A DNA stretch of 64,000 nucleotides, taken from Gammaproteobacteria bacterium (GTDB lineage Bacteria > Pseudomonadota > Gammaproteobacteria > GCA-001735895). Within the stretch, counting starts at the first letter, position 1, and every line of letters starts with the position of its first letter. Below are positions 11,543 through 62,265 of this stretch, piece after piece. The notes below the pieces were generated by a model. That model saw nothing but the letters and a program-made list of their open reading frames with translations, did not search any database and had not been told where the DNA came from. The DNA lies in contig JBNKUM010000085.1 in the NCBI GenBank assembly GCA_050298595.1, positions 128,001 through 192,000 of the forward strand, written 5' to 3'. Both the position numbers and the translations under genes were made by a program.

Positions 11543-11671
11543 CCCACCAATTAACTCTAATTATGCGCTTGCCCCGCAAATTTTATAAATTTAATTTGAC
11601 ACTCAGGGTCATAAAAAAAATCTACAACATAGCCGGTGCAATTATTTTAGAAGTGTCGTATAGTTTATTAA

Positions 11672-11851
11672 ACCAACTGCGGTGTTAGTTAGCTTCTATA
11701 AGATCCTTGAGCCTAATTATCAACTTCGGGGCGATCAGTGTCATACTGGTGTGCATGCCCGAGATTTTTCGGGAAGCCTGATGGATGCCCTCTTGCCCCA
11801 CCTGAACCTTCTGGTTCAAGGTTGATAGTCTGCGACGGCATCGCGGTTGGT
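11672..11851 (+). ncRNA. ssrS: 6S RNA
   Basis: ~180 nt between zapA and fau; ends ACCAACTGCGGTGTT / GGCATCGCGGTTGGT pair; internal CCTTGAGCC and CTGAACC...GGTTCAAGG motifs. Confidence 0.9.
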
Positions 11852-11875
11852 ATTTTCTCCTTCTAATAATAAAGT

Positions 11876-31166: not shown

Positions 31167-32486
31167 ATGAGTAAACGCACTCAGCCTGGGCTATTGAGCC
31201 ATCGACGGGTTCTAAAAATTGCACTACCTATAGTGCTGTCTAACGCAACTGTTCCCATCCTTGGAGCCGTGGATACTGGCGTGGTGGGTCAGATGGGTGC
31301 TGCTACGCCCATTGGTGCAGTGGGTATAGGAGCTGTGATTGTTGCCTCTATTTACTGGATCTTCGGTTTTCTGCGCATGGGGACGACCGGAATGGTTGCG
31401 CAGACACTAGGGGCTGGAAACCAGGCGGAGGTTTCTGCCCTACTGACGCGGGCACTCATGATTGCCTTCGCAGGCGGTCTACTGCTGATTGTGTTTCAGA
31501 TCCCCATCCTGTGGCTGGTTTTTCAAATTTCACCGGCTTCCGCTGAAGTAGAAACTCTGGCGCGTGCCTATATCAATATCCGCATCTGGTCCGCGCCCTT
31601 TGCCATTTCTATCTATGGCCTTACCGGCTGGCTGATCGCACATGAACGCACTCGCTCAGTGCTGTTATTACAGCTATGGATGAACGGGCTAAATATACTG
31701 CTCGATCTATGCTTCGTACTGGGCCTGGATTGGGGCGTCGAAGGCGTAGCAATAGCGACAGTCATCGCCGAGGTTTCTGGAGCCGCTATGGGACTGTGGC
31801 TGTGTCGAGAGGCAATGACCCACCCCGCCTGGCGTATGGCAGAAAGGATATTTGATCGTGAGCGACTTATACACATGGCGCAGGTAAACACCGACATCCT
31901 GATTCGTTCCGTACTACTGCTATCGATCATCGTAAGCTTCACCTTTTTCGGCTCCAGTTTTGGTGACCTGACACTAGCTGCCAATCAGATACTCATGCAA
32001 TTTGTTGAAATCACCGCCTATGCACTAGATGGCTTTGCCTTTGCTGCTGAAGCCATTGTAGGTCAGGCATTTGGTGCTAGATCACGCTCCACATTACGCC
32101 GAGCTTCCTTGCTCACTTCCTGGTGGGGGCTGATCATGTCTGGGCTTCTGGCGGTCGCGTTTGCATTATTTGGCGGGGTGATCATTGACACGATGGCTAC
32201 GGCGGCAGATGTTCGATTGGAGGCCAGAGATTATCTGCCATGGATGATAGCCACGCCTTTGTTAGGTCTACCCGCCTGGATGCTGGATGGGATTTTTATT
32301 GGTGCAACTCGTACGCGGGATATGCGGAATATGATGGTGGTCAGTATCATTATTTACCTGCTGTCTGTTGCTATTTTGATGCCGATGTTCGGCAATCATG
32401 GGCTTTGGATGGCTTTGAGTATTAGTTATCTGGCGAGAGGCTCGACTTTGTTTTGGAAGTATTTTGGGCTGGAAGCAGAGGTTTAA
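31167..32486 (+). CDS. MATE efflux transporter (DinF-like)
   Basis: ALPIVLSNATVPILGAVDTGVVG, FLRMGTTG, ALDGFAFAAE. Confidence 0.92.
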   Translation: MSKRTQPGLLSHRRVLKIALPIVLSNATVPILGAVDTGVVGQMGAATPIGAVGIGAVIVASIYWIFGFLRMGTTGMVAQTLGAGNQAEVSALLTRALMIAFAGGLLLIVFQIPILWLVFQISPASAEVETLARAYINIRIWSAPFAISIYGLTGWLIAHERTRSVLLLQLWMNGLNILLDLCFVLGLDWGVEGVAIATVIAEVSGAAMGLWLCREAMTHPAWRMAERIFDRERLIHMAQVNTDILIRSVLLLSIIVSFTFFGSSFGDLTLAANQILMQFVEITAYALDGFAFAAEAIVGQAFGARSRSTLRRASLLTSWWGLIMSGLLAVAFALFGGVIIDTMATAADVRLEARDYLPWMIATPLLGLPAWMLDGIFIGATRTRDMRNMMVVSIIIYLLSVAILMPMFGNHGLWMALSISYLARGSTLFWKYFGLEAEV

Positions 32487-32504
32487 TATTTGCCTCTATC
32501 CAGA

Positions 32505-32570
32505 GCATGATTTCATATGCCCAGGCTTTCCTTGCTGCACAGCATCTTTCTTGTAGGTGTACGAGCCTCT
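32505..32570 (+). repeat. Truncated degenerate copy of the composite repeat at 33996 and 40578
   Basis: ATGATTTCATATGCCCAGGCTTTCCTTGC...TCTTTCTTGTAGGTGTACGAGCC aligns with reverse complement of ~40510-40572. Confidence 0.65.
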
Positions 32571-32612: not shown

Positions 32613-32652
32613 TCACATATCACAGATGCGCTTCACATATCACAGATGCGCT
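32613..32652. repeat. Perfect 20-bp tandem duplication at hemG 3' end
   Basis: TCACATATCACAGATGCGCT x2. Confidence 0.9.
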
Positions 32653-33160
32653 GACCAAATGCTTCAACCTGAGACCAGTCGGTAAAATCTATATTGGTGT
32701 CTGGATCTGTTGGGCCTTTGGTCATCCACATAATCATCCTGATCATGGTGCGGTCAAACAGGCTGTATTTTTGATAATCGATCTTGCCAGCAAACACAGC
32801 AAGATTTTTTGGCTGCCAGCTAATTTGCTTAAGAAACTTTTTTAAATACGGATTGGTGTCAGGCAGCCTTTTTTCAGCTTTGCGCGCTACAACATTCACC
32901 GAAAAGAAAGCATTAGACTTGCTATCTAGCACCGACTCATTTTGCTTAATAAAATGATATATTTTATTACTGTGCTTGCCGTAACGAATACTCGCACCTA
33001 TGACAATCTTATCGTATTTATTTAACTCGGAAGGATTAACCTCGTCTACAGAAACAAGCGTCACCTGATTATTCTGCTTTTGTATAATTTGCCTGAGGCG
33101 TAAGCAGATCTCTCGAGTATGCCCATCGGTGGTTGAATAAATTATTAGAATGTTAGCCAT
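32633..33160 (-). CDS. hemG: Menaquinone-dependent protoporphyrinogen IX dehydrogenase (flavodoxin type)
   Basis: YSTTDGHT, GASIRYG, FFSVN, FAGKIDY, TKGPTD, FTDW. Confidence 0.92.
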   Translation of the reverse strand: MANILIIYSTTDGHTREICLRLRQIIQKQNNQVTLVSVDEVNPSELNKYDKIVIGASIRYGKHSNKIYHFIKQNESVLDSKSNAFFSVNVVARKAEKRLPDTNPYLKKFLKQISWQPKNLAVFAGKIDYQKYSLFDRTMIRMIMWMTKGPTDPDTNIDFTDWSQVEAFGQRICDM

Positions 33161-33594
33161 TGATTGCAAATTGTGTATTAGTCAAGCTACCACCTGATTC
33201 CCTTCCAGAAGCCAGGACCGTACTCATCTGATAACTGGACGCGTAGCGGGCACCGCGTCCGACCGCAATATATCTATTAAGCCTTCTTTATTGTCGCAGA
33301 AAACCTGTAGGGCAGGTCAAATATTTAGCCCTCATACAGAGAGACACTCAGGAAAATCATTAATTTAGATTCTACGAAATCCACTTATACTCATTCATAG
33401 TTTTTGTCATTTGAGCTCAGAAAAACGAGTCATTTTGCAGGATCTGAGCAAACTACAGCAGAGATATGGGCGAAGCTATATCAATCAATTCTGCTCTTAT
33501 TGATTGAGACTTATTGTTATATCTGGCCACCAACCTCGATATTAATTTATCAATGTGAGATGATAAATTCTAGAAATCACTAAAAGAGGAAATC

Positions 33595-33995: not shown

Positions 33996-34421
33996 CCGGA
34001 TTATGGTTTCACACCCCTTAGCTTTCCTGGCGCCGTAGTATCTGACGAGTACGTGTGCGAGTGGCTTTCTTTTTTCGCGAAAAGAAAGCTACCAAAAAAT
34101 TTACAGGATTAATTTTGAACAGCTCTGCTGGCCCGAAGGGTAGTGGGCAGGACACCCGGAATAACGACGTTCCACAGAAGTGGCCTGCGGCTTCTCGAAA
34201 CACAGCCATTTTCACAGAAAATTGCTCGGCTCTGGCACCCTAGGCTCAGGCATCCTGCTTCGCTCTATCTCCTCCCTCCCTGGAGTCGTGCTTCGCCCTA
34301 CCATCTAAGTCCCTTTAGGCGTCCTGCATTTTCTGCATACATGCCATCCCTGGCAATAAGGGCGATATAAAACCTCACCCTTCGATTCTGATTTTTGATT
34401 AAAGTTTTGAAGCCCGAACTT
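33996..34421 (+). repeat. Composite palindromic/MITE-like repeat at left island border
   Basis: Blocks CCGGATTATGGTTTCACAC, AGTGGCCTGCGGCTT, AGCCATTTT, CAATAAGGGCGAT shared in inverted orientation with 40321-40578. Confidence 0.8.
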
Positions 34422-34647
34422 GCACGATTCCTTCCTGAAAACAGTCGCTCCCGGTTAATGAGTGTACCAATATCAGTCATTCAATACTGCGGTAAATCTT
34501 ATGAAATACCATAGTAATCTCACCTGACTTCTTCCCAAAAGGCATATATCTCTAGTGTCACGAAATTCTCACCATGTATGACGAAACAGCAGTTTGCCAA
34601 CTCATTGATTTCAAAACGCTTACAGTGATATAAAGAGGTCTTACAAT

Positions 34648-34692
34648 AAATGTATAACGAGACAAGGGGTCTCGTTAAGATAACTGTTAAGT
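34648..34692 (+). other. Palindromic attI-like cassette entry site A
   Basis: TAACGAGAC-N5-GTCTCGTTA then GTTAAGT (34686), complementary to R'' ACTTAAC of first attC; near-identical inverted copy at 39590-39634. Confidence 0.7.
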
Positions 34693-34700
34693 GTAAAACA

Positions 34701-35060
34701 ATGGGTAAGTATCGAAACTCTAAACTCTTTCCAAACGAACGTCAGGAAAAGACATTCCTTTATCCTCATGTTTGCCTAAGCTGTAGAAAGAGTTTTAAAA
34801 AAAGTCATTCTGAACAGCCTAGGTTGTGCCCTGATTGTCAGCAGCCTTTAATTCTGTTGAGTCGAAATTTTTCTGCACCTAAAACTAATGACGAGAAACA
34901 GTGGAAGAAAGTTGCTTTTCTAATTGAACAAGGGTTCCTATTTCAGCACGTTTACCAGAATGAATGGGGTGGTCAGTATGCGGCTTACCCAAAAACTTTG
35001 GCAGAGGCCAGAGAATTTGTCGTTAAGTACAAGAAATGGGCAATACAAAATGACACTTAA
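34701..35060 (+). CDS. Cassette A1: zinc-ribbon hypothetical protein
   Basis: CLSC and CPDC pairs; ATG just after GTT core; stop overlaps attC R''. Confidence 0.8.
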   Translation: MGKYRNSKLFPNERQEKTFLYPHVCLSCRKSFKKSHSEQPRLCPDCQQPLILLSRNFSAPKTNDEKQWKKVAFLIEQGFLFQHVYQNEWGGQYAAYPKTLAEAREFVVKYKKWAIQNDT

Positions 35061-35113
35061 CAAAAACATCAACCCAGACCCAGTAAAGCGGTCCGGTTAT
35101 ATTGGCGTTATGC
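35055..35113 (+). mobile_element. Integron attC site (59 bp)
   Basis: ACTTAAC...CAACCCAGACC/GGTCCGGTT...GTTATGC imperfect palindrome. Confidence 0.85.
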
Positions 35114-35119
35114 ACTGAA

Positions 35120-35725
35120 ATGAGAAAACCAATAAGAAGAAGCAGGAATATCGGGAAAACCCAAGGTGGCAGGGTCAAGGATGGTCGTGCCGAAGAAAAG
35201 TGGAGCCGCCTTTTCCCTGAGAATAAATGGAGGCAAATATCCGAAGCAGAAATGTCTTGGCAGGCCTTCATTGAAAACCCGTCAAGAGATTTTTATCACC
35301 CCTGTAGTCCTGCTGACTACCTGGCCGTCCTAAGAAGGCTTCCTAATCATCAAACGGAAGATATTAAAGGAATTATTTTACGACGAACCCCCAAAAGAGA
35401 TTCACAGCTTGGAATTGATGCATGGCGAAGGTGGTCATGCATCATTATGAATGCGTTTCCATCAAACAACACATTTACTTACGAATACAAGCCAAAGCAA
35501 TCTCAGATCAGCTATTTCAAACCTTTCTGCAACAGGTGGAGAGAAGAAAATGGTGTTTGGTCATTAGAGTGGGAGGAAGAAGAAGTTCGTCGATACTATT
35601 TGTACCACGTATTTTTACACGAAATAGGTCACATCAACGATTTGTCAAAAACATCGCAAACGAAAAGGGAAAACTATGCTAATTCATTTGCAAGAGATAT
35701 GGCTGAATATCTTGGAGAGCGGTAA
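35120..35725 (+). CDS. Cassette A2: hypothetical protein with HExxH zinc-peptidase motif
   Basis: VFLHEIGH...ENYAN; bounded by GTTATGC and GCATAAC. Confidence 0.75.
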   Translation: MRKPIRRSRNIGKTQGGRVKDGRAEEKWSRLFPENKWRQISEAEMSWQAFIENPSRDFYHPCSPADYLAVLRRLPNHQTEDIKGIILRRTPKRDSQLGIDAWRRWSCIIMNAFPSNNTFTYEYKPKQSQISYFKPFCNRWREENGVWSLEWEEEEVRRYYLYHVFLHEIGHINDLSKTSQTKRENYANSFARDMAEYLGER

Positions 35726-35729
35726 TAAT

Positions 35730-35800
35730 GCATAACATAACAATCAGATACATAGTACTCGCTCGCTGCCCTCACACTCCTGTGAGCCTGGCCGTTATGT
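35730..35800 (+). mobile_element. Integron attC site (degenerate)
   Basis: GCATAAC (complement of the cassette's GTTATGC) ... GTTATGT. Confidence 0.65.
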
Positions 35801-35878
35801 TCTTTTTTAATACAGTGAAGAACTATGAAAGTAGTGATCAATAATTTTCACACATATAAACAACAGTATTAATAGCTT

Positions 35879-36592
35879 ATGGAATGGTATACTGAAATTG
35901 ATCTTTATTGTGAACGAATTGATCCAGGTTTTTGGGCAGAGCCTTTAAATGCTATTACAAATATTGCTTTCATAGTTGCATCTTTTTGGGCCTGGCATAC
36001 GGCATATAAGCTCGGAAAGTTAGATATCACAATAAAATTACTTTGTATTATGGCTGCAAGTATTGGCATTGGTTCGTTTCTATTTCATACCTATGCAAAC
36101 TTATGGTCTTATTTTGCTGATGTGATTCCTATTTGGAGTTTTGTCGCCTTATATGTGGTGGTCTTAATAATTAGAACATCCGCTAAATCACCATTACGAG
36201 TCGATGGAATTGCAGCTGGTATTATAGCTATTATTGGCGTTGTATGGATTATAGGATCAGGCAGTGCCACCCAAACTAAAGCATCCCCTGATGTGCTAAA
36301 TGGATCTGAACAGTATGCTCCAGCCTTAATTGCTTTATATTTCTTTGCATTCATGAGTGTTCGTAAGAAAAATCCAATTAGACTATGGATTGTAAGTGCA
36401 GCAATGATTTTTACATTATCGTTAATTGCGCGCACAGTAGATTTACATTTATGCGAAACATTTCCTCACGGCACACACTTTTATTGGCATCTATTAGATG
36501 GGTTAATGGTTGGGCTTTTATTACAGGGGCTTATTCGAATTGAAAGGAAAGAAACGAACCTCAAATATGATCGTGTAACAGGAGGGCTCTAA
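35879..36592 (+). CDS. Cassette A3: ceramidase-domain (CREST-like) membrane hydrolase
   Basis: YCER..FWAEPLNAITN, GSFLFH, HFYWH; multiple TM helices; AT-rich. Confidence 0.82.
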   Translation: MEWYTEIDLYCERIDPGFWAEPLNAITNIAFIVASFWAWHTAYKLGKLDITIKLLCIMAASIGIGSFLFHTYANLWSYFADVIPIWSFVALYVVVLIIRTSAKSPLRVDGIAAGIIAIIGVVWIIGSGSATQTKASPDVLNGSEQYAPALIALYFFAFMSVRKKNPIRLWIVSAAMIFTLSLIARTVDLHLCETFPHGTHFYWHLLDGLMVGLLLQGLIRIERKETNLKYDRVTGGL

Positions 36593-36634
36593 TGGTCTGT
36601 CCCCACAACACCCTGAATACGGGTCCACACACGA
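36570..36634 (-). mobile_element. Degenerate group IIC-attC intron 3' end (domains V-VI)
   Basis: Minus strand CGTGTGTGGACCCGTATTCAGGGTGTTGTGGGG...CCTCCTGTTACACGAT, similar to 38716-38783. Confidence 0.6.
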
Positions 36635-36639
36635 CTGAG

Positions 36640-36870
36640 GGGATTCAGGAAGTAGAGCGAAGCAAGATGCCTGAGCCGAGGAAGCCAGAACCGAGGGTGT
36701 TTCCCAAAGATGTTAAAGCAAGCTAAAGAAAATCAAACACAGAATATTCTAATATTAGAGTAATTTGTGACCCCGGATTGGCGCTTGCCATCCCTGACAA
36801 TAAGGGCGATAAAAAACCTCACTCTTCAGTGCTGATTTTTGATTAAACTTTTTTGATGCCCGAACTTGCC
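36640..36870. repeat. Two fragments of the composite repeat family
   Basis: ~36650-36697 is the reverse complement of ~34226-34272; ~36786-36869 matches ~34342-34423. Confidence 0.75.
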
Positions 36871-36970
36871 ATTCCTGACATCCTACGTATGTCTTTTTAA
36901 TGCACGTTAAGAGCTCTCAATATAATTCAGCTGATACCGCACACCTCCCATCAATGTGAAAACTTTTGTC

Positions 36971-37070
36971 GTAGGTCGGATAAGCAAAGCGCCATCCGAC
37001 ATAAACGATACAAGCACATTACCAAACTAAAAGTACGTCAATGTTGGAAGGCGTCGTTCCTCCTTTTCCA
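36971..37070 (+). repeat. GTAG-type REP doublet, second unit interrupted by IS
   Basis: GTAGGTCGGATAAGC...ATCCGAC; second unit TGTTGGAAGG...TTTTC continues as CAACCTAC at 38489-38496. Confidence 0.8.
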
Positions 37071-37147
37071 ATGACATGGACTCCTCCCCACTAAAGCGGT
37101 GATCCGTTAAAGTGAGAGGTCAACGAAACCAAAACAGGAGCCATGCC

Positions 37148-38177
37148 ATGAAAAATGATACAACAATTTGCATCGATTTATCGAAAGAGGTTTTTCAAGT
37201 AGCCGTATTCAACCGAGGAGGTAAAACCCTCATCAATAAAGCGATGTCATGCAAAAAAATGGTGAAAACCATCCACGAATACCCTGGCGCAAAAATCTAC
37301 ATGGAAGCATGCGGTTCAGCGCATTATTGGGGTCGATATTTTGTCGGGAAGGGATTTGAGGTAGGCCTGATCCCTCCTCATATTGCAGCCAGGTACCGTA
37401 CAGGAAATAAGAGTGACAAAAATGATGTGTTAGCGATCTTCGAAGCGAGTAAAAACCCAAAAATCCACTGTGTCCCCATCAGGACTGTGGAGCAGCAGGA
37501 TATTGCCTTGCTGCATAAACAGCGAGAAGGCTTCAAAAAGGAGCGTAATCAGGTGGTTAACCGGATCAGAAGTTTTTGCTCGGGAGTACGGTGTTCATTT
37601 CGCCATTGGAATCAAGCCTCTTTTAAGGCAGGTTCCTGAGGCTTTAGAGGATGCGGAAAACGAGCTCAGTGTGATGGCTCGGGAAATACTCTCAGAACTG
37701 CTCGTTCATCTCAGAGAGCTCATCTAACGGCTTGACAGTATGAGCCACACAATAGAGACCTATGCAAGAACGATAGAACCTTGCCGGCGATTGGTTATGC
37801 TGCCAGGTATATCCTGGCTGATCGCTAGTATGCTATATGCAAAATTTGGCGATTGTCATGCCTTTCAACGAGGGCGAGACACCAGCGCGAGTATAGGAAT
37901 CGTACACGCCCATTCAGAAAGCGGGGGGAAGATCAAGATCGGCAGCATCACAAAGCGAGGGGACATTTACCTTCGAAGTCTTGTGGTGAATGGCGCTCGA
38001 TCCGTGGTGAGTCATATCCAGGAGAAAGCCGATGGCTTAAGCTGCTGGATCAGGAAGTTGCTTGCGACAAAGAAATTTAACCAGGTCGTCATCGCGGTGG
38101 CCAACAAAGTGATCAGGATGGCTTGTGCCATGCTGAAAAGTGGCGATGAATACCGCCAGCCTGTCACCCAGGCATAA
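37148..38177 (+). pseudogene. IS110-family recombinase with frameshift (~37578) and internal stop (37725-27)
   Basis: IDLSKEVFQ, MEACGSAHYW, KSDKND (DEDD), SESGGK, ITKRGDIYLR, AVANK across split ORFs. Confidence 0.9.
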
Positions 38178-38219
38178 CGGTATTCTTTAGCCTGTGTTTA
38201 ACGATAACAGTACCTATCA

Positions 38220-38400
38220 TGTAGTTAGCTAATGAAGTAACGGATCATTATAGCTGGTAGCAGACCAGGCAAACCCTGAGTAGGTTGAAGGCCCTTTGAG
38301 GCCTCTTTTCCAATAAGGAGTTTGGTCTTCACGGCAAATAGCCGTACAGGTCTGGAGTAGCTCTCCATAACAAAGACCGAATATACGACAGCTAACACAG
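38220..38400 (+). ncRNA. Putative bridge/seek RNA of the IS1111 element; boundaries approximate
   Basis: GTAGGTTG (38280-87) and CTTTTCCAA (38305-13) match both halves of empty target CTTTTCCAACCTAC and flank an AGGCC/GGCCT hairpin. Confidence 0.75.
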
Positions 38401-38534
38401 CTTATAAGAGCGTTGCAACACAATGCCAACGAAGTGGAGTACTTGTAAGTTTTCTCAATAGTATTGCAAAACAGGAGGAGTCCATATACAACCTACGATT
38501 CCGGGTTACGGGTTTACAGGTTATAGAAGGCAGC

Positions 38535-38783
38535 TGACTGGTGGAAACAGAAGTCCTACCACCAACGCCGGTTTGAACAATGCACATTTCGAAAAGACAA
38601 GTCTCATATCCATGCGAAAGCTATGGTGCAAGATTCACCATCCGGCTACGGCCCGATAGACACTTGATATGAATTCGATTTACCCGATGAAGTATCTCAG
38701 TTAATAACTGGTCAGGCACCGTATACGGACCCGTATCTACGGTGTTGTGGCAAGGGGCTACTTGAGTAGCTCCCTATCCCGAT
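38535..38783 (+). mobile_element. 3' remnant of group IIC-attC intron (IEP C-terminus plus domains V-VI)
   Basis: NAGLNNAHFEKTSLISMRKLWCKIHHPATAR* (38564-38659); CCGTATACGGACCCGTATCTACGGTGTTGTGG...CTATCCCGAT|TAGC, antisense to cassette just after its stop. Confidence 0.8.
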
Positions 38784-38789
38784 TAGCTT

Positions 38790-39122
38790 TTATCCTTTTA
38801 CGCCAAGCTCAAGAATATGACAAAAGATTTTTCCATTTCCATAGAAATCCTTTGGCTCTACCTTAAGATATACATCTTTTCCAGCTGCGTAAGCGCTCAA
38901 TAGTGTTGATATTTTCCCCTTTTCTCCTGAATCTTTTTCATCAACATATGCCCATGCGGGACCATCAGGGCAGTAACTCATGGATGCCATACCATATACT
39001 CTAAAGTAAAGGTTGTTACCACTAGATACAAACACTTGATTGATCTTAAACCAGCCTGTTGACTCAGCTGCATATGAAATACTAGATAATAATATCATTA
39101 CCGTTACTAATAAAACTCTCAT
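38790..39122 (-). CDS. Cassette B2: small secreted two-Cys protein
   Basis: Signal peptide, RBS AGGAG, starts after attC GTTAGTT. Confidence 0.8.
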   Translation of the reverse strand: MRVLLVTVMILLSSISYAAESTGWFKINQVFVSSGNNLYFRVYGMASMSYCPDGPAWAYVDEKDSGEKGKISTLLSAYAAGKDVYLKVEPKDFYGNGKIFCHILELGVKG

Positions 39123-39144
39123 ACTTCCTACTCCTTTAAATTTA

Positions 39145-39228
39145 AACTAACGCTGCAAACACCGGAGGCAAAGCCATAGCGACGTAGGAGCGACAGCTTT
39201 TCCTTCCGTGTGATTTGCTTTGTTATAA
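39145..39228 (-). mobile_element. Integron attC site (84 bp)
   Basis: TTATAAC AAAGCAAATCACACGGAAGGAAAAGC...GCTTTGCCTCCGGTGTTTGCAGC GTTAGTT long imperfect hairpin. Confidence 0.88.
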
Positions 39229-39229
39229 A

Positions 39230-39571
39230 TTATCTGATTCCGGCTCCCTGACTTGCTGTTGATGAGGCAGAGCAGATATCTTCGGCCATGGGGAGGTCTA
39301 TAACAACACCCCAGTCTTTATTGGCTGCAAATGCGGTCATCACCATTGATAAAGCCGCTTTAGCTCTCTCGGCCCCCATATCTGATACTTTGAAATACAC
39401 TCTATCCCACTTACAGAAGCCTTTAATATCTTGATTATCCAAGTCGACTTCAAAGCTACCATCAGGTCCAATAGTTCGAACAGATGTTACTTTTCCCCAA
39501 TACCATGCATTAGAAGCATAGGAATTAGAGGCTGCAATTATCAATAATAAAGTGGTGATGATTTTCAACAT
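39230..39571 (-). CDS. Cassette B1: small secreted two-Cys protein
   Basis: Signal peptide, RBS GGAG, bounded by GTTATAA and TTATAAC. Confidence 0.8.
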   Translation of the reverse strand: MLKIITTLLLIIAASNSYASNAWYWGKVTSVRTIGPDGSFEVDLDNQDIKGFCKWDRVYFKVSDMGAERAKAALSMVMTAFAANKDWGVVIDLPMAEDICSASSTASQGAGIR

Positions 39572-39589
39572 AAACTATTTCTCCAAAAT

Positions 39590-39634
39590 TTATAACAGAT
39601 GTATTAACGAGACTTCATGTCTCGTTATACATTT
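39590..39634 (-). other. Palindromic attI-like cassette entry site B
   Basis: Reverse complement AAATGTATAACGAGACATGAAGTCTCGTTAATACATCTGTTATAA; 36/42 identical to site A. Confidence 0.7.
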
Positions 39635-40320: not shown

Positions 40321-40578
40321 ATCGCCCTTATTGAGTGCCGAAAATCGAGCCATTTTGCAGGGTCAGAGCACATAGATGTGCGATGAGGACAGTCGAGCGG
40401 GGATGCGAGTCTGTCCGTGTCTTGCAAAATGGCTTGATTTTCGGGAAGCCGCAGGCCACTCAAATCGGGCTGGCCTTTTTTGCGCCTCTTTTTTGGCCAA
40501 ACAAAAAAGGGGCTCGCACGCCTACTAGAAAGACACTACGAAGCAAGGAAAGCCCGGGCGTGTGAAACCATAATCCGG
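40321..40578 (-). repeat. Composite palindromic/MITE-like repeat at right island border, inverted relative to 33996
   Basis: Reverse complement begins CCGGATTATGGTTTCACAC; contains AGTGGCCTGCGGCTT and CAATAAGGGCGAT. Confidence 0.8.
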
Positions 40579-40659
40579 GAAGTTGCTAATTTTTCAAGAG
40601 AGATTACTTCACTACGTTTGTAATGACATAGCCAAAGGTTATGAAGTGGGTGAAAGCCC

Positions 40660-62092: not shown

Positions 62093-62172
62093 ATACACGT
62101 CGTGGCTTTACAAATTTAATTCTCAGGCTAGAATACACCATCTTGATTTGCCCGTAGCTCTACGGGCACTTT

Positions 62173-62241
62173 ATTTGAGGAGCGCTGCGACAGTCTTTAC
62201 TGCCAGGCTCGAATGAAGTTATACGGTCAACGGCGCTCATA
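62173..62241 (+). promoter_or_regulatory. SAH riboswitch
   Basis: GAGGAGCGCTGCGAC...CCAGGCTCG...CAACGGCGCTCA directly upstream of ahcY. Confidence 0.9.
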
Positions 62242-62265
62242 AATCAAACCCACGAGGTAAAATTT

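Follow-up and report, generated by a model that had tools for sequence, protein, structure and literature searches.

The palindromic motif TAACGAGAC-N5-GTCTCGTTA-N8-GTT, which occurs twice in the 64,000-nt stretch of gammaproteobacterial DNA analysed here (hereafter the window), is probably the core ('simple site') of the attI of a distinct chromosomal integron lineage, reused without its leader as a cassette recombination site. Sequence comparison between genomes suggests that the complete attI comprises an ∼130-nt leader beside a divergent intI and a 39-nt core (AAATGTA-TAACGAGAC-N5-GTCTCGTTA-N8-G), and that the core would be cut between G and TT, where cassettes would enter. Hereafter, we call leader plus core the leader form, and cores without the leader the leaderless form. 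The preliminary description of the window had taken the motif as an attI-like primary recombination site. This interpretation is right for one of the two window copies (site A), which has leader and core and whose counterparts in relatives abut intI. It is too narrow overall, since it fits neither the other window copy (site B) nor most copies elsewhere.

Two palindromic sites and their cassettes in the window

The motif occupies 34655-34692 on the forward strand (site A) and 39590-39627 on the reverse strand (site B). These are the only matches with at most two mismatches in the window, and 100 dinucleotide-preserving shuffles gave none, which confirms that the palindrome is present twice. 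A repeat finder returned the same pair as inverted arms of 42 nt (34648-34689 and 39593-39634; 86% complementary, i.e. 36/42). Direct reading bears out the earlier statement that the copies differ only in the palindrome spacer and the linker: the 5-nt loop and the linker account for three of the six differences each, and past GTTA the identity stops. It also bears out the complementarity of each GTT core to the R'' of the first downstream attC. GTTAAGT of site A (34686-34692) is the exact reverse complement of ACTTAAC (35055-61), and GTTATAA on the minus strand of site B (39596-39590) is that of TTATAAC (39228-39222). The features of the locus are collected in Table 1.

Table 1. Window coordinates of the two palindromic sites, their cassettes and the insertion between the opposed arrays
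Feature	Position	Strand	Description
attI leader of site A	34523..34654	+	Profile match and alignment with 29 other copies; no intI attached
Site A core	34648..34692	+	AAATGTA, perfect 9-bp palindrome TAACGAGAC-N5-GTCTCGTTA with 5-nt loop (34655-34677), 8-nt linker, GTTAAGT
Cassette 1	34687..35107	+	ORF 34701-35060 (weak zinc-ribbon matches, under the Pfam cut-off); canonical attC 35055-35113, R'' ACTTAAC, R' GTTATGC
Cassette 2	35108..35794	+	ORF 35120-35725 (no Pfam family); canonical attC 35730-35800, R'' GCATAAC, R' GTTATGT
Cassette 3	35795..36602	+	ORF 35879-36592, ceramidase-family membrane protein (Pfam PF05875, E 3.4e-11)
Insertion between opposed arrays	36603..38750	+	31-nt inverted repeats 36603-36633 / 38720-38750
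Second cassette of opposed array	38790..39228	-	ORF 39122-38790 (no Pfam family); range includes the attC of cassette B1
attC of cassette B1	39228-39145	-	Canonical; R'' TTATAAC, R' GTTAGTT
Cassette B1	39230..39589	-	ORF 39571-39230 (no Pfam family); starts TTATAA directly after the G of site B
Site B	39590..39634	-	Leaderless core facing left; palindrome TAACGAGAC-N5-GTCTCGTTA at 39605-39627; G of GTT is the complement of 39596

A profile built from 20 aligned leaders (nhmmer) matched C85:162523-162697, i.e. window 34523-34697, with an E value of 7.5e-44 (150.8 bits). In the leader of site A, the TGTCACGA box is accompanied by an upstream direct repeat (34573-34588) in which the left half-site recurs in degenerate form, with three mismatches to the family consensus, and by a promoter-like element, TTGATT-N18-TGATATAAA (34605-34634), which is directed into the cassettes and was read from conserved columns. 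A consensus promoter scanner chose other hexamers at this site (CTTACA-17-TACAAT, 34619-34647). Contig C85 gave no match to IntI, nor did the sequence within 1.5 kb of the site. Because the leader is present and intI is absent, site A appears by its sequence to be an orphan attI that kept its leader, lost its intI and still heads three cassettes.

Two orthologous loci of the same genus, L024 (G073:C4) and L030 (G072:C45), place the crossover of site A at G34686|T34687. Both match the window to 34687 and resume at 35794 (94% identical). In the alignment, their copies of cassette 3 (L024 1532-2351 and L030 2605-1807, 94% identity) follow directly after the attI core. Since the relatives carry cassette 3 straight after the core, the window differs from them by cassettes 1 and 2 (34687-35794), with the boundary exactly at G|TT. 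This is the place at which IntI-type insertion had been proposed, and at site A the proposal agrees with the cassette content of related genomes. The two-cassette difference could be an insertion in the window, or a deletion or excision in the relatives; in the latter, GTT is mutated to GTC or GTA and one palindrome arm is changed. No R'' complementary to the start of cassette 3 was seen at the 3' end of that cassette. The ORF of cassette 2 includes an HEIGH stretch that, read from the DNA only, resembles a zinc-metalloprotease motif.

Site B heads two cassettes that run towards site A, and its locus is 99.9% identical over 1684 nt to one in genome G073 (L014). Upstream of it we found no attI leader, no R''-type box and no ORF, and the leader profile matched the core only (profile positions 128-171). 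A degenerate attI was considered and rejected here: the upstream 130 nt score 17 against the leader of site A, shuffles score 15.1 +/- 2.3, and 102/500 of them reach the observed score. Site B thus lacks both leader and R'', and matches neither the leader form nor the leaderless R'' form cleanly.

The insertion between the two opposed arrays encodes an IS110-family transposase split in two frames (37112-37639 and 37740-38177; Pfam PF01548 and PF02371), with ∼500 nt of non-coding DNA upstream of it inside the 31-nt inverted repeats. The transposase body is single-copy in the genome, and the flanking pieces are repeated: the insertion borders (36567-36637 and 38563-38785) have further copies on several contigs, and one of them is also present at the end of a contig of genome G076. 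Other repeats surround the locus. A dispersed repeat of ∼55-65 nt is present at 36630-36695, at 34225-34290 and on about 15 other contigs, in both orientations and with copies 80-92% identical. Further repeats lie on both sides of the integron relic (33996-34098, 32485-32570 and 40476-40593). A 20-nt unit is exactly duplicated in tandem at 32613-32652, just downstream of a flavodoxin-domain gene (32633-33169, minus strand). Rfam, run over the whole window at gathering thresholds, gave no match at sites A and B or upstream of the IS110-family gene; its only matches at these thresholds were a 6S RNA at 11671-11853 (101 bits) and a SAH riboswitch at 62171-62245 (56.6 bits).

Leader and leaderless copies across genomes

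In the whole genome, four core copies were found with at most one mismatch, and none with a reversed control pattern. When the genome was searched for other perfect palindromes arranged in this way (TAA[AC], then 5-8 nt, a stem of ≥8, 6-10 nt and GTT), only sites A and B fitted convincingly. Further leader copies of this genome lie on contigs C32 and C97, and a degenerate one on C30. The fourth core copy (L004, G000:C85:252311-255333) has on one side an ORF with a Cys-rich CPCC domain, to which no cassette start could be matched, and on the other a TipAS-domain cassette that carries an ordinary attC. Its neighbours include a CorA-like gene and a fragment that, read by eye, resembles a REP-associated (IS200-like) transposase.

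In the family as sampled, the motif is present in 6/79 genomes, all of the window's genus (5/13 of the others there), and in 0/65 genomes of three other genera. A wider scan with one genome per species gave at least 133 matching stretches. Among the matches listed, most come from Candidatus Thiodiazotropha (lucinid-clam symbionts), Sedimenticolaceae and other marine or sediment Gammaproteobacteria. Actinobacterial matches (Mycolicibacterium, Streptomyces and others) lack the flanking AATGTA and CTGTT and were treated as unrelated. Oriented by its flanks, the consensus reads AAATGTA, TAACGAGAC, 5-nt loop, GTCTCGTTA, ATAnAnCT, GTT(A/G). In four contigs of Candidatus Thiodiazotropha MAGs (L063, L097, L108 and L135), the loop is CCCTT, the reverse complement of the common AAGGG, with the flank orientation unchanged; the loop of the palindrome is evidently flipped there. 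A regular-expression heuristic applied to the 22 nt upstream of the 133 unique oriented copies listed assigned a leader to ∼33 and none to ∼100, with a few copies mislabelled (e.g. L021).

The leader form is defined by a conserved block of ∼130 nt before the core in an alignment of 30 copies. The block contains, in order, the box TGTCACGAC, the left half-site as a direct repeat (GAATGTATAACGAGACAG), the element TTGAT-N18-TGnTATAnA facing the cassettes, and GAGGTCT. The direct repeat is likely, by analogy, to be an accessory IntI-binding site, and the leader would also provide an outward promoter-like element. The earlier contrast between direct repeats in attI1 and a palindrome here was therefore incomplete, as this site has both the palindrome and a conserved upstream direct repeat.

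Whether any copy abuts intI had been left as a check, and in relatives the answer is positive. In G076:C339, the leader block runs directly into the start of intI on the opposite strand. Among the 19 leader copies with at least 700 nt of upstream flank, the upstream sequence of five (L027, L035, L042, L077 and L080) gives a divergent match to IntI whose end is 130-148 nt away; such a match lies at 137 nt in a sixth leader copy, with a short flank, and L165 is also intI-adjacent. The divergent intI that is absent at site A is thus present at these homologous loci. Three leader-linked integrases score 384-393 bits against TIGR02249 (cut-off 265). No intI lies beside the other 14/19 leader copies with enough flank, so that either intI is lost very frequently, or leader and core relocate by another route.

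In a set of 151 genomes from the family to which one intI-linked locus belongs, we then examined the 30 best IntI loci. Leader and core stand beside both of the two integrases at ≥92% identity to the IntI of that locus and beside none of the 28 at ≤51%. Furthermore, the upstream 300 nt of L035, L042, L077, L080 and L098 are 84-92% identical, and the downstream cassettes are similar in no pair. As expected for the TTRRRY start of a first cassette at an attI, the cassettes joined at G|TT of sites A and B start with the complement of the R'' of their own attC; a complement of the GTT sequence in a downstream R'' was found in 64/82 copies against 31 expected, a high background. By sequence, the leader form appears to behave as an attI, i.e. 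a conserved site tied to one integrase clade and followed by a variable first cassette.

The genome of the window has an intI of the motif-linked clade on another contig (C99). Its start lies 55 nt away from the end of the contig, on which the start of a leader is also present; it shows 68% identity to the IntI of L080 and is interrupted by one TGA and one TAA. The two intact integrases of this genome (on C89 and C75) are 42% and 37% identical to the motif-linked clade. The stretch examined upstream of the C89 gene (L005) contains no palindrome, and that examined upstream of the C75 gene (L006) contains another ORF and no palindrome. Since the cognate integrase gene is a pseudogene on another contig, the window locus is probably frozen, a decaying relic.

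In leaderless copies, the core is preceded by an R''-type hexamer (ACATAA, GCATAA, GCCTAA and the like) and then A. For the 72 leaderless copies with at least 400 nt upstream, we searched for the heptamer formed by G and the reverse complement of the hexamer, with the hexamers of other copies as a control. It was found 120-2500 nt upstream in 41/72 against 9.4 expected, which indicates that the hexamer pairs with the start of its own cassette. For instance, one cassette of L013 starts with TTATGT after an ordinary attC and ends with ACATAA plus core, and another starts with TTATGA and ends with TCATAA plus core. In 26/57 cases, a frame of ≥50 codons ends with the TAA of the hexamer as its stop codon (one and three in the shifted frames). 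The leaderless sites are ∼51 nt long and are interleaved with ordinary attCs in the same arrays. In the predicted fold of the segment L013:1133-1192 (-12.1 kcal/mol, z -6.3), a 7x9 internal loop separates an 8-bp outer stem from a 9-bp stem that is capped by a 5-nt loop, i.e. a hairpin with the unpaired central spacer of an attC. Relative to the attC pairing cores (RYYYAAC/GTTRRRY), the R'' hexamer outside the window is of RYYTAA type and its seventh base is A, not C, in 66/67 leaderless copies; neither window copy has such an R''. Taken together, leaderless copies appear to close cassettes and to act as cassette recombination sites, either attC-like or of ΔattI type.

Short sites at cassette boundaries of a second sequence family are built in a similar way, with an R''-type hexamer followed by AACATGA, TAATGAGACC, a loop, GGTCTCGTTTA, TCATTCT and GTT, and with a one-base bulge in the stem. 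In the genome of the window (G000), this family was seen in an array on C35:30510-34186 and at C110:37-705, C102:37118-37158 and C111:5689-5732.

Origin of the leaderless form and alternative explanations

From AAATGTA to G, the leader form and the leaderless form have the same sequence. They differ only in the hexamer before it: RYYTAA precedes leaderless cores, and mostly TGCTAT stands before cores with a leader. Moreover, leaderless cores resemble the attI of their own array: they are at 0-1 mismatch from it in 10/15 cases, with a mean of 1.6 mismatches against 5.1 to other arrays, and in L027 the leaderless cores and the resident attI have a rare GTCTCGTTC arm in common. In a leaderless site, the R'' of the cassette itself thus continues into a 3' segment of attI that reaches as far as the crossover G and usually matches the attI of the array. 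This is the arrangement of the ΔattI-type cassettes found in integrons of classes 1 and 2, in which, according to PMC12901181, the 3' part of attI stands in place of the attC after the R'' of the cassette itself. That paper reports such cassettes to be functional with IntI1 and cites, for their origin, the model of Partridge, in which the L box of attI crosses over with the R'' of an attC.

Because the leaderless cores copy the resident attI and follow the ΔattI-type pattern, they probably derive from it, by analogy through a crossover of its left boundary with the R'' of an ordinary attC. The core fused behind a cassette R'' can fold into an attC-like hairpin in which an unpaired 7x9 spacer separates an R stem of 6-8 bp from the 9-bp stem with its 5-nt loop. 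We also considered that the core is part of the downstream cassette and is cut at its left boundary only, and rejected this as the sole mechanism, as in the mixed arrays of L013 cassettes start after an ordinary attC and end with the core.

A further step, which we put forward only tentatively, is that the integrase cuts the core not only at the usual G|TT but also at a left boundary that corresponds to the L box. As the hairpin is part of the core, DNA joined at the left boundary would gain a ready-made attC-like site. If both boundaries were cut, (i) ordinary genes would have a natural route to becoming new cassettes; (ii) attI would be mechanistically equivalent to attC and possibly recombined as a folded single strand; and (iii) site B, whose left boundary lies on unrelated non-coding DNA, and the copy at C85:253811, which lies behind the CPCC-domain ORF without a matching cassette start, would be products of such events.

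The direction of descent could be the reverse. The leaderless sites would then be an independent family of very short (∼51 nt) attCs from one of which the attI of this lineage evolved, and the hairpin would be primarily a single-strand attC structure. This would account for the attC-like geometry (R stem, unpaired spacer, L stem and short loop), for the excess of leaderless sites over the leader form (∼100 vs 33 among the copies listed) and for the second family (the C35 array, C110, C102 and C111), which has the same layout with a bulged stem and for which no leader copy was found. However, leaderless cores match the resident attI down to rare variants, and the seventh base of R'' is almost always A. 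In addition, the 9-bp stem is perfect and the two arms measure 22 and 24 nt, with the surplus unpaired bases on the L'-R' arm, whereas the extrahelical bases of attCs are defined on the R''-L'' arm in the part of PMC2727003 that deals with them. We consider an origin from short attCs unlikely, and derivation from the resident attI remains our preferred reading.

A chiefly transcriptional role of the hairpin, as an antisense intrinsic terminator or the operator of a dimeric regulator that lies near cassettes incidentally, is much less probable still. On the strand opposite the cassettes, and only there, the 9-bp stem is followed by a T run (TACATTT(T)(T)), both window copies were called terminator-like, and a gene for an XRE-type HTH protein lies 0.7 kb upstream of site A. 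Such a role nevertheless leaves unexplained the break at G|TT, the complementarity to R'', the link to one IntI clade and the cassette difference between genomes. A terminator function could coexist with recombination.

It is hardly credible that sites A and B are the terminal inverted repeats of an ∼5-kb transposon, IS or MITE-like element. They do lie in inverted orientation, separated by 4.9 kb, and an IS110-family transposase is encoded between them. Elsewhere, however, most copies follow one another as direct tandem repeats at the distances of cassettes (804 nt for G072:C22, 923 nt and 492 nt for G076:C541, and five copies on a contig of a Ctena symbiont), and similarity always stops at GTT on the inner side. 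The orthologues of site A in G073 and G072 keep the site without the two cassettes and so differ inside the supposed unit and not at its ends. No such ends are known for IS110-family elements. The preliminary description had named, as findings that would count against it, copies not enriched before cassettes and a motif that is an IS or MITE end or a known attI; the copies do precede cassettes, the motif is no IS or MITE end, and the literature searches described below returned no known attI with it.

Comparison with known recombination sites and significance

Like attI1 of class 1 integrons, the leader form lies between a divergent intI and the first cassette, has its crossover at G|TT of GTTRRRY and has upstream direct repeats that resemble part of the core. 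The left-boundary box ends in A and not C in both (TGCTAT-A here and CCCTAAA in attI1, as given in the part of PMC12901181 on these boundaries). By contrast, there is no sequence similarity between attI1 and the new attI. The left boundary is ∼5 nt from GTT in attI1 and 37 nt from it here, with the perfect 9-bp palindrome and the 5-nt loop between them, and a promoter-like element lies inside the site here.

Compared with ΔattI-type cassettes, the leaderless form retains a longer attI piece: mostly 8-12 nt there, according to the section of PMC12901181 that describes them, and 39 nt here, with a hairpin and an attC-like fold. They also differ in frequency, with 96 cases among 1,685 class 1 integrons in that section, whereas the leaderless form is common in many environmental gammaproteobacterial chromosomal arrays.

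Leaderless sites share with canonical attCs an R'' hexamer complementary to the first six bases of the cassette, the succession of stem, unpaired spacer, stem and loop, and a position at the 3' end of the ORF, often with the stop codon within R''. They differ in (i) a length of ∼51 nt, against 57-141 bp for attCs in the portion of PMC12901181 concerned; (ii) the A at the seventh R'' base, and an R''-L'' arm without an extrahelical base, with two extra bases on the L'-R' arm; and (iii) a sequence that is nearly invariant across taxa, while attCs are conserved in structure only.

CALINs are clusters of attCs that lack an integrase. The window locus resembles them in being a short cassette cluster with no intI within reach, and differs in that its cluster is still headed by a recognizable attI.

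Full-text literature searches with the motif strings (their matches inspected in part) and with attI, attC, hairpin and direct-repeat topics returned no attI or attC with such a structure, and searches on integrons together with Thiodiazotropha returned nothing relevant. Thirty attI families are described in PMC3146285, and neither 'palindrom' nor 'stem' turned up when its text was searched for these terms. Judging from these searches, in which no earlier description of such an attI class was found, an attI core with a hairpin appears to be new.

In brief, these results point to a whole chromosomal integron lineage that has a perfect hairpin in its attI core and reuses this core as the site of many cassettes. 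Detailed knowledge of attI sites is confined to very few integron classes, and these sites are viewed as double-stranded and unrelated to the folded single-stranded attCs of cassettes. The lineage would provide a natural and abundant counterpart to the rare ΔattI-type cassettes of clinical integrons. It would also offer a system for asking how an integrase handles a site that is half attI and half attC, and how genes gain a cassette recombination site.
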